Positions 48,824 through 49,581 of a stretch of DNA of 64,000 bases are shown one piece after another. The notes under the pieces are model-generated. The model was not told the origin of the DNA. It did no database searches and saw nothing but the letters and a program-made list of their open reading frames with translations. Origin of the DNA: Eledone cirrhosa. Taxonomy: Eukaryota. The position numbers and the translations under genes were made by a program. Every line of letters starts with the position of its first letter. Positions within the stretch are counted from its first letter, which is position 1. The stretch is taken from positions 40,548,001 to 40,612,000 of the forward strand of contig OZ024745.1 in the NCBI GenBank assembly GCA_964016885.1. The letters run 5' to 3'.

Positions 48824-48937
48824 TATATATATATTAGAAATTAGAAATTATAAGCTTTCACCGTATTTTAGACTAAAGAAATTTCTAGCCTGATAGTGGG
48901 GTTTATAATCCTCGGAGAAATGGAAAAAGATGAGTGT

Positions 48938-49008
48938 TGCTGTACATGGGAGTCGAACCCAGATCTTTGGTTATCCAGACCACTGTGCTTCCATTACACC
49001 AATACACA
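48938..49008 (-). tRNA. tRNA-like sequence (mirror copy)
   Basis: Reverse complement of 49320-49390. Confidence 0.5.
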
Positions 49009-49319
49009 TCCCGTCTCCTTCCATTCGAATTAGAAGCTATGAACTTAGCAAGTGAATGATAAACAAGCAAATTATAAATGTAAACATGTAAGTATGTTTT
49101 TGAAACGGTGCGCGAGTTTGAAAATTAGTTATAAACCCCACTATCAGGTTAGAAATTTCTTTAGTCTAAAATACGGTGAAAGCTTATAATTTCTAATTTC
49201 TAATTTTCAAACTCGCGCACCGTTTCAAAAACATACTTACATGTTTACATTTATAATTTGCTTGTTTATCATTCACTTGTTAAGTTCATAGCTTCTCATT
49301 CGAATGGAAGGAGACGGGG

Positions 49320-49390
49320 TGTGTATTGGTGTAATGGAAGCACAGTGGTCTGGATAACCAAAGATGTGGGTTCGACTCCCATGTACAGCA
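49320..49390 (+). tRNA. tRNA-like sequence, probably a pseudo-tRNA or SINE head (GGA at anticodon position)
   Basis: D-arm GTGT-AATGGAA-GCAC, anticodon arm TGGT-CTGGATA-ACCA, T-arm GTGGG-TTCGACT-CCCAT, acceptor 5 of 7 pairs; T5 run follows near 49400. Confidence 0.55.
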
Positions 49391-49581
49391 ACACTCATCT
49401 TTTTCCTTTTCTCTGAGAGTTATAAACCCCACTTTCAGGCTAGAAATTTCTTTAGTCTAAAATATGGTGAAAGCTCATAATTTCTAATTTCTAATTTTCA
49501 AACTCGCGCACCGTTTCAAAAACATACTTACATGTTTACATTTATAATTTGCTTATATATATATATATACATATATATATA

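Follow-up and report, generated by a model that had tools for sequence, protein, structure and literature searches.

SINEs are passengers of LINEs, and retrozymes are hammerhead-bearing passengers of PLEs. The locus at 48834-49554 of the window (the whole 64,000-nt stretch of Eledone cirrhosa DNA analysed, C5:40548001-40612000 in a 3.0-Gb genome) raises the question of whether one small element can have features of both. An earlier note, made from the letters of the window, had described it as a candidate retrozyme/SINE hybrid with an internal tRNA-like Pol III cassette. Our analysis favours, with a probability of about 0.6, a non-coding, ribozyme-free, permuted SINE-like PLE passenger that is copied from read-through transcripts.

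The locus and its family

The inverted arms of the locus (48833-49128 and 49200-49495) are 296 nt long and 96% alike, and a direct repeat (49127-49269 and 49418-49560) has a spacing of 291 nt. These findings confirmed the proposal of a ~291-bp unit present as one inverted copy plus 1.5 tandem copies. The locus is a back-to-back pair of the unit (1.0 + 1.5 periods) within a (TA)n tract, and the (TA)n flanks that had been noticed were found at 48724-48834 and 49554-49583. It ends at a short start site (S) on the left and a long start site (L) on the right. The features are as follows.

about 48724-48834: (TA)n/(CA)n microsatellite, left target flank
48834-49128, minus strand: inverted arm, ~1.0 period, with its outer (3') end at S
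49127-49129: junction of the two 5'-truncated arms, with 2-nt microhomology
49129-49554, plus strand: direct arm, ~1.5 periods of subfamily A, with its outer (3') end at L
49554-49583: (TA)n right target flank, common to the 3' end of a minus-strand Neptune-type PLE

Site L of the direct arm lies at 49554-49560, its position being blurred by AT microhomology. The circular permutation between the two copies, which had been taken as a property of the unit, is real as seen; however, it results from fixed 3' ends at S and L combined with two random 5' truncations.

The first genome-wide look gave 1372 candidates for the unit, 40 of which were scored. Exact 24-mer matches numbered 746 for the A tail, 1384 for the tRNA part, and 627 for the C tail, and the reversed controls gave 0. 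The family was also present in contigs from three runs of one sample. The unit is thus multi-copy, and the single-locus rearrangement that the earlier note had named as fatal to its reading did not hold. The family is dispersed, with thousands of copies in at least four subfamilies of 260-291 bp. We fetched 187 loci and removed 17 overlapping or duplicate ones; the 170 kept comprised 26 best matches, 85 tail-pattern picks, and 59 tRNA-pattern picks; both pattern-picked sets consist of the earliest listed positions for contig C1. Copies of subfamily A (290-291 nt) have a median identity of 97.7% to their consensus, those of B (260 nt) 93.5%, and those of C (272 nt) 96.2%. Subfamily D (289 nt; 1415 first-look candidates) has a copy number similar to the others and retains a (TA)n remnant immediately beyond its L site, apparently the tract into which the founding copy inserted. 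A further divergent subfamily, with T at position 58, was seen at L346:1500-1620.

Ends of the copies and the probable mobilising machinery

PLE insertions have been described as partial tandems that carry an inverted 5'-truncated copy, lie in (TA)n targets, and have a tail of 30-40 bp at one end (PMC8557442); the tail corresponds to the interval that separates two internal RT start sites (PMC11167929). We defined S and L as 3'-end windows of 15-22 nt and counted arms of at least 30 bp. By this count, 258 of 317 arms ended at S or L, and 210 of these 258 continued into (TA)n. The distance between the two sites was about 65 nt in A and about 37-40 nt in B and C. Simple back-to-back pairs made up 101 of the 170 loci, and 1 of the 170 had the reverse arrangement. 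Both ends could be classed in 74 of 100 tight-junction pairs: 71 were L+S, 1 was L+L, and 2 were S+S. All classable pairs from the sets not picked by tail (40/40) were L+S. Candidate non-microsatellite TSDs were found in 0 of 101 pairs (a pure-TA TSD would be invisible), and poly(A) was present in 1 of 317 arms. The 5' ends of the copies were variable; most copies start elsewhere than at the tRNA, and together with the TSD result this goes against copies that always begin at a tRNA head with ordinary TSDs, the other outcome that had been named as contrary to a PLE-type element.

An autonomous Neptune-type PLE in the same genome (L163) has the same design: it is back-to-back, lies in (TA)n, and has one short and one long end. 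This layout matches the PLE description (PMC8557442) and the two internal RT starts (PMC11167929). Neptune-type PLEs of the genome have long open frames of 938 and 1096 aa. The S and L ends, the L+S pairs, and the (TA)n targets support the proposed PLE-type mobile unit with an internal tRNA cassette, and the family is very likely mobilised by PLE machinery. No autonomous PLE with a homologous 3' end was found among 70 GIY-YIG loci (of 150 listed, from 10597 candidates), and no partner PLE was found in the 5' flanks of 52 single-orientation loci. In an nhmmer partner search over 330 sequences (1.15 Mb), subfamily D was the sole match. No Naiad-type ORF was seen among the GIY-YIG loci examined.

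The tRNA-like cassette, its T arm and the template RNA

The anatomy of the unit is given below; tRNA positions follow the usual tRNA numbering and were assigned by hand.

48938-49008, minus strand: tRNA-like cloverleaf of the inverted arm (Rfam match 48940-49008)
48991-49001, 48949-48958 and 48924-48928, minus strand: A box, B box and T5 of the inverted arm
49287-49319, plus strand: conserved upstream block of the tRNA
49318-49390, plus strand: tRNA-like cloverleaf with pseudo-anticodon GGA at 49352-49354 (ARAGORN, Rfam)
49327-49337 and 49370-49379, plus strand: A box and B box of the plus copy, with A58 at 49375
49400-49404, plus strand: T5 run directly 3' of the tRNA, Pol III terminator-like
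49410-49495, plus strand: body with two small hairpins and a GAAAGCT piece, no hammerhead, ending at site S (49495)
49496-49560, plus strand: PLE-type tail between S and L, with a small hairpin at 49500-49516

The tRNA-like cloverleaf with A box, B box, and T5, as first noticed by eye, was confirmed. ARAGORN called the plus-strand cloverleaf at 49318-49390 with anticodon GGA, and Rfam matched a tRNA on both arms with 38.4 and 35.2 bits, above the gathering score of 29. Good family copies scored 35-48 bits. The A box is perfect in all four subfamilies and the B box is canonical in A-C; the B box of subfamily D lacks the invariant A58. The T run after the tRNA is T5, and T7 in D. The cassette departs from a functional tRNA in having a GGA anticodon without a long variable arm, and T37. 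Its acceptor stem is partly unpaired in subfamily A, and its anticodon loop differs in D.

The final 17 nt of the upstream block, which begin at 49303, mirror the tRNA trailer as an inverted copy. A stalk between these bases and the trailer, T run included, is predicted in all four subfamilies; in B and C, 14 or 15 of the 17 nt match the reversed trailer. This predicted stalk may be a selected structure or a fossil inversion junction. Identities between A and D were 60/71 for the tRNA, 23/34 for the upstream block, 49/92 for the body, and 32/64 for the tail. Judged by these counts, the tRNA and its upstream block are better kept between subfamilies than body and tail.

An Rfam search of the genome (63 candidates scored) gave no parent tRNA isotype for the unit; it returned Thr genes and another repeat. 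The former include a tRNA-Thr gene cluster with 7 and 5 calls within 3 kb (L292, L294). The latter is a second dispersed repeat (L293 and L295-L303; 10 loci on 5 contigs) with a well-formed tRNA-like gene of 52.9-71.5 bits and a variable anticodon. Its long conserved element and inverted repeat of 150-180 bp suggest a DNA-type mobile element with a captured tRNA gene.

The variable 5' ends showed a marked excess in the T arm. In 125 tail-picked A arms, 51 stopped within A58-A73, whereas 5.2 were expected from the rest of the unit. Of the 51, 31 lay at C63-G66, where a CATG palindrome and AT offer microhomology. Six A arms stopped exactly at C59 (0.22 expected), with four junction types. A second C sample (29 tail-picked loci, 5 of which overlap the earlier set) gave 13 T-arm stops versus 1.55 expected, with 0 stops exactly at C59. 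Subfamily D has T58 in 35 of 36 copies and the same T stem as A. T-arm stops occurred in 4 of 34 D arms versus 49 of 92 A arms (Fisher P 1.6e-5); the D count becomes 5/35 with L393 added by hand, and the D loci are best matches to the 3' part and older than the A copies. These findings showed that the T-arm stop is A58-dependent.

The known RT signature of m1A is arrest one base 3' of the site, together with misreading (PMC4787781). The T-arm 24-mer occurs unchanged 1537 times in the genome (~180 of these in the satellite described below, a scaled estimate). A58 was changed in 46 genome matches (23 T, 16 G, 7 C), versus 15 for A64, the one control site counted. In subfamily A arms, 8 of 79 A sites reach the substitution rate of A58, and changes of A58 in aligned arms are few (3/127, 2/64, and 1/45). 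A58-dependence does not equal methylation, because loss of the T54-A58 pair also alters the fold of the loop. We lean slightly towards m1A58 on the template RNA as the cause of the stop. The positions of these breaks suggest that the copied RNA is folded by the cell as a genuine tRNA would be, and it is probably methylated like one. RNase Z processing was rejected as the cause of the truncation hot spot: the stops fall within the T arm rather than beyond base 73. An A58-less subfamily was rejected as the source of the A58 excess, other subfamilies accounting for 2 of 30 inspected matches.

We then considered the form of the template. Neighbouring periods of one arm agreed at three haplotype sites in 38/39, 17/19, and 22/22 cases, and the two arms of a locus in 29/30, 25/25, and 30/30. 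Rare variants common to tandem periods were found 10 times in 8009 sites (A) and 10 times in 1619 (C). A circular monomer made without a ribozyme (tRNA-type processing followed by ligation is one conceivable route) and copied by rolling-circle RT would account for the agreement between periods and for the shared rare variants. It would also suit the dispersed arms of 5-7 periods (L030, L256), since a circle spares repeated passage of the terminator. However, the agreement of periods and arms fits a circle and a homogeneous tandem source alike, and tandem divergence (0.037) was not lower than between-arm divergence (0.031; P 0.065; 27 loci). No ribozyme was found in the unit, and 5' ends were not enriched at the RNase Z position (1 versus 0.63 expected in C). 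Compared with shuffled sequences, circular folds had no clear gain in stability (z -0.3, -2.3, and -1.5 for A, B, and C), and 5' ends near the tRNA start imply that some templates were linear. We consider the circular template unlikely, and a linear one likely.

A stronger statement of the case is that the element is a PLE-mobilised, circularly permuted SINE whose tRNA cassette replaces the hammerhead of retrozymes, whose tandem design supplies the Pol III promoter together with its own 5' flank, and whose copies record both m1A58 arrest and misreading by the PLE reverse transcriptase on a germline template and the one-long/one-short rule of PLE integration; taken to its limit, this statement makes the template a circular RNA that lacks a ribozyme. 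We put this statement forward tentatively.

Stops at the tRNA start were clear in subfamily C (13 versus 1.35 and 5 versus 0.48 expected, in two samples) and weak in A (6 versus 3.0, P 0.08) and B (4 versus 1.2). Seven 5' ends in C lay 1-6 nt upstream of tRNA base 1, as expected for Pol III starts. Among arms that passed the anticodon, 12 of 38 in C, 10 of 33 in B, and 6 of 42 in A stopped within ~8 nt of the tRNA start. Most arms that passed the anticodon continued upstream beyond this point; thus, most surviving long copies came from templates that included the previous unit. The proposal of a template longer than one tRNA-headed monomer was upheld. From the boxes and the clustering of 5' ends, Pol III is probably the main source of the template RNA. 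Because subfamily D spread without the B-box A58, Pol III is weakened as a requirement, and most Pol III transcripts would be expected to terminate at the T run immediately 3' of the tRNA (T5, or T7 in D) without reaching the tail.

An alternative is that the passenger RNA comes from Pol II or ambient read-through. The tRNA part would then be a folded and possibly modified element rather than a promoter, and may act in stability, export, or RT recruitment. The abundance of D and the extension of most arms beyond the tRNA start agree with this, as does the stalk, which is kept in four subfamilies and forms only in RNA started upstream. On the other hand, the stalk may be a fossil inversion junction, given its 14 or 15 matches in 17 nt in B and C. 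The perfect A box in all four subfamilies, the canonical B box in A-C, the terminator-like T run at its normal place, and the C ends 1-6 nt upstream of the tRNA start also argue against this alternative. Transcription of this kind appears rather improbable, even beside the circular template.

Our preferred reading, a permuted PLE passenger copied from read-through transcripts, would operate as follows. Pol III would start a few bases before the tRNA of a tandem copy and would sometimes pass T5, giving RNAs of one to several periods. A PLE RT-endonuclease would cut both strands of a (TA)n tract, and reverse transcription would begin at internal positions of the RNA, with S used on one side and L on the other. 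Both cDNAs would end early, most often at the tRNA T arm and probably at a methylated A58, and would be joined head to head by microhomology. A minority of copies would pass the tRNA into the upstream unit and bring along the promoter with its own 5' flank; these would keep the permuted tandem design alive, like the pLTR in autonomous PLEs. One such copy would have expanded in place to form a satellite of 276 kb.

A strand excess among the 24-mer matches pointed to this satellite, an array on C28 at 19,440,624-19,716,546 (276 kb, ~950 units by division). In the 200 kb fully examined there were 692 matches, on one strand; the ends were also examined, and 59.5 kb was sampled by three 3-kb probes. 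At the 5' end of the array a tRNA head stands beside (TA)n, and other sequence interrupts the 3' end. The satellite has two fixed variants (98% and 99% of 686 units), at sites where 94% and 99% of dispersed A copies carry the consensus base. D-stem and T-stem bases of the satellite units are often mutated. Because its fixed variants differ from the dispersed A copies, the satellite is an offshoot of the family and was rejected as its master locus. A separate T>G change in the body of subfamily A (window 49157 and 49448) was present in 19 of 211 copies; it was unlinked to the haplotypes, not common to periods or arms, and rare in the satellite.

Hammerhead motifs and known systems

The ribozyme half of the proposed hybrid was examined with a type I descriptor that follows PMC4209133. 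Its core is CUGANGA or the U3-A8 variant, an unpaired base is tolerated at stem II, and helix III must be palindromic. Coverage of types II and III came from the absence of an exact first core box and from Rfam. As a positive control, the descriptor found hammerheads in 16 of 50 GIY-YIG (PLE) loci of the genome. The sense strands of the A, B, and C consensuses gave no hammerhead, even when two core mismatches were tolerated, and 1 of 275 arms gave a strict match. Rfam found no ribozyme in the unit. The one near-match, on the antisense strand of A, was rejected as AT-rich and absent in B and C.

The hammerhead-like pieces that had been noticed are present, with GGTGAAAGCT at 49175 and 49466; however, they could not be assembled into a hammerhead. 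In the consensuses the first piece reads CCGAGGG or CTGAGGG, which differ from the core by two changes and one change, respectively; the GAAA of the other piece becomes GATA in subfamily C and is missing from D. The 5' ends did not cluster at the would-be hammerhead cut. With no descriptor match in the consensuses and no Rfam ribozyme, the ribozyme half of the hybrid was not supported. A hammerhead retrozyme like Sm-alpha, in which multimers self-cleave to monomers and circles, would be in keeping with the size, tandem layout, and PLE signature of the unit, which suit non-LTR retrozymes, and with GAAAGCTT and its palindromic AGCT in subfamily A. The single strict match among arms, set against the 16 control loci, the altered or missing GAAA in C and D, the lack of an Rfam ribozyme, and the absence of an end cluster at the expected cut make such an element very improbable.

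An ordinary LINE-dependent tRNA SINE altered by later local DNA duplications and inversions, which the tRNA head, body, and fixed tail (readable as a ~240-nt SINE) and the copies that begin at the tRNA might suggest, is equally hard to maintain and already largely refuted by the end statistics: 71 of 74 back-to-back pairs have one long and one short end, poly(A) and TSDs are absent, and copies regularly include sequence upstream of the tRNA. The unit resembles tRNA-derived SINEs in its tRNA head with A and B boxes, its body, and a 3' region for a borrowed RT. It differs from them in the T run right after the head, in the permuted tandem with its own 5' flank, and in having PLE-type ends instead of a simple tail and TSD.

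Sm-alpha and Sj-alpha form tandem arrays and are transcribed by Pol III. Like the unit, they are tRNA-derived SINE-like repeats, but Sm-alpha has a hammerhead and the unit has none (PMC2770079). Non-autonomous PLEs and animal non-LTR retrozymes (PMC7229834; 10.64898/2026.07.22.740005), and non-autonomous Chlamys such as MRC1 (PMC8557442), share with it a non-coding unit of 170-400 nt, partial tandems, and a proposed PLE dependence. The periods of 260-291 nt fall within the ~170-400 nt of retrozymes; however, the unit has a tRNA cassette instead of a hammerhead, and no homology to the pLTR of autonomous PLEs was seen in the 70 GIY-YIG loci of 150 listed.

EN+ PLEs (Neptune, Naiad, Poseidon) are like the unit in 5' truncation, an inverted upstream arm, and a 30-40-nt tail, and also in (TA)n targets and two internal start sites (PMC8557442; PMC11167929). 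Naiads, as characterised in PMC8557442, also lack canonical hammerheads. The unit differs in having no ORF and, in subfamily A, a 65-nt tail. Its one-long/one-short pairing is strict, whereas the in vitro results given in PMC11167929 record no strand difference in starts. The amphibian repeats PolIII/TAN, OAX, Rana/polIII, and Hy/polIII are tandem units of 200-360 nt with a tRNA-like part and resemble the C28 array (PMC10702118). The account of them in that source identifies no dispersed parent; here, there are dispersed PLE-type copies and the array is derived. Short non-autonomous Penelope elements are mentioned in butterflies, without a tRNA in that mention (PMC6685494). We found no precedent for a tRNA-bearing, ribozyme-free PLE passenger in the literature searched, with Repbase-type entries and subscription papers outside the search.

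A tRNA-driven, ribozyme-free PLE passenger would join the SINE and retrozyme types. The family provides a large in vivo read-out of PLE transposition, a poorly understood process, in the form of a 290-nt natural template with two mapped starts, near-strict long/short pairing, and a one-base-dependent stop in a tRNA loop. It also illustrates how a dispersed retroposon can seed a tRNA-like satellite, a connection that is still missing for the amphibian repeats.

Several other repeats were observed in and beyond the window. A broken LINE at 5444-9755 (plus strand) has endonuclease-like and RT frames (RVT_1, E 6e-20 for 8397-9167); in a Pfam search of 6 window ORFs, the LINE RT was the only domain named. 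A 463-nt tandem duplication lies within (TA)n at 31604-32529, and a 29-nt GC-rich minisatellite at 43566-43649. Rfam miRNA matches were rejected as artefacts of inversion and microsatellites. Upstream of the locus, the 3' end of another PLE-type element also forms an inverted pair (47695-47988, minus; 48194-48695, plus), with a related copy at 20939-21479. By eye, this pair contains a minimal hammerhead (CTGAAGA at ~48578) with one mutation per copy, and the intact form was found at L154. Downstream, 49584-50900 (minus) is a 3' UTR of the Neptune-type family L151/L161, 75-85% alike; the hammerhead of this family has a U3-A8 core, and the copy adjoins the locus through the common (TA)n. Elsewhere in the genome, four canonical hammerheads ~490-510 nt apart lie at L164:8167-9652, which is likely a true retrozyme array.
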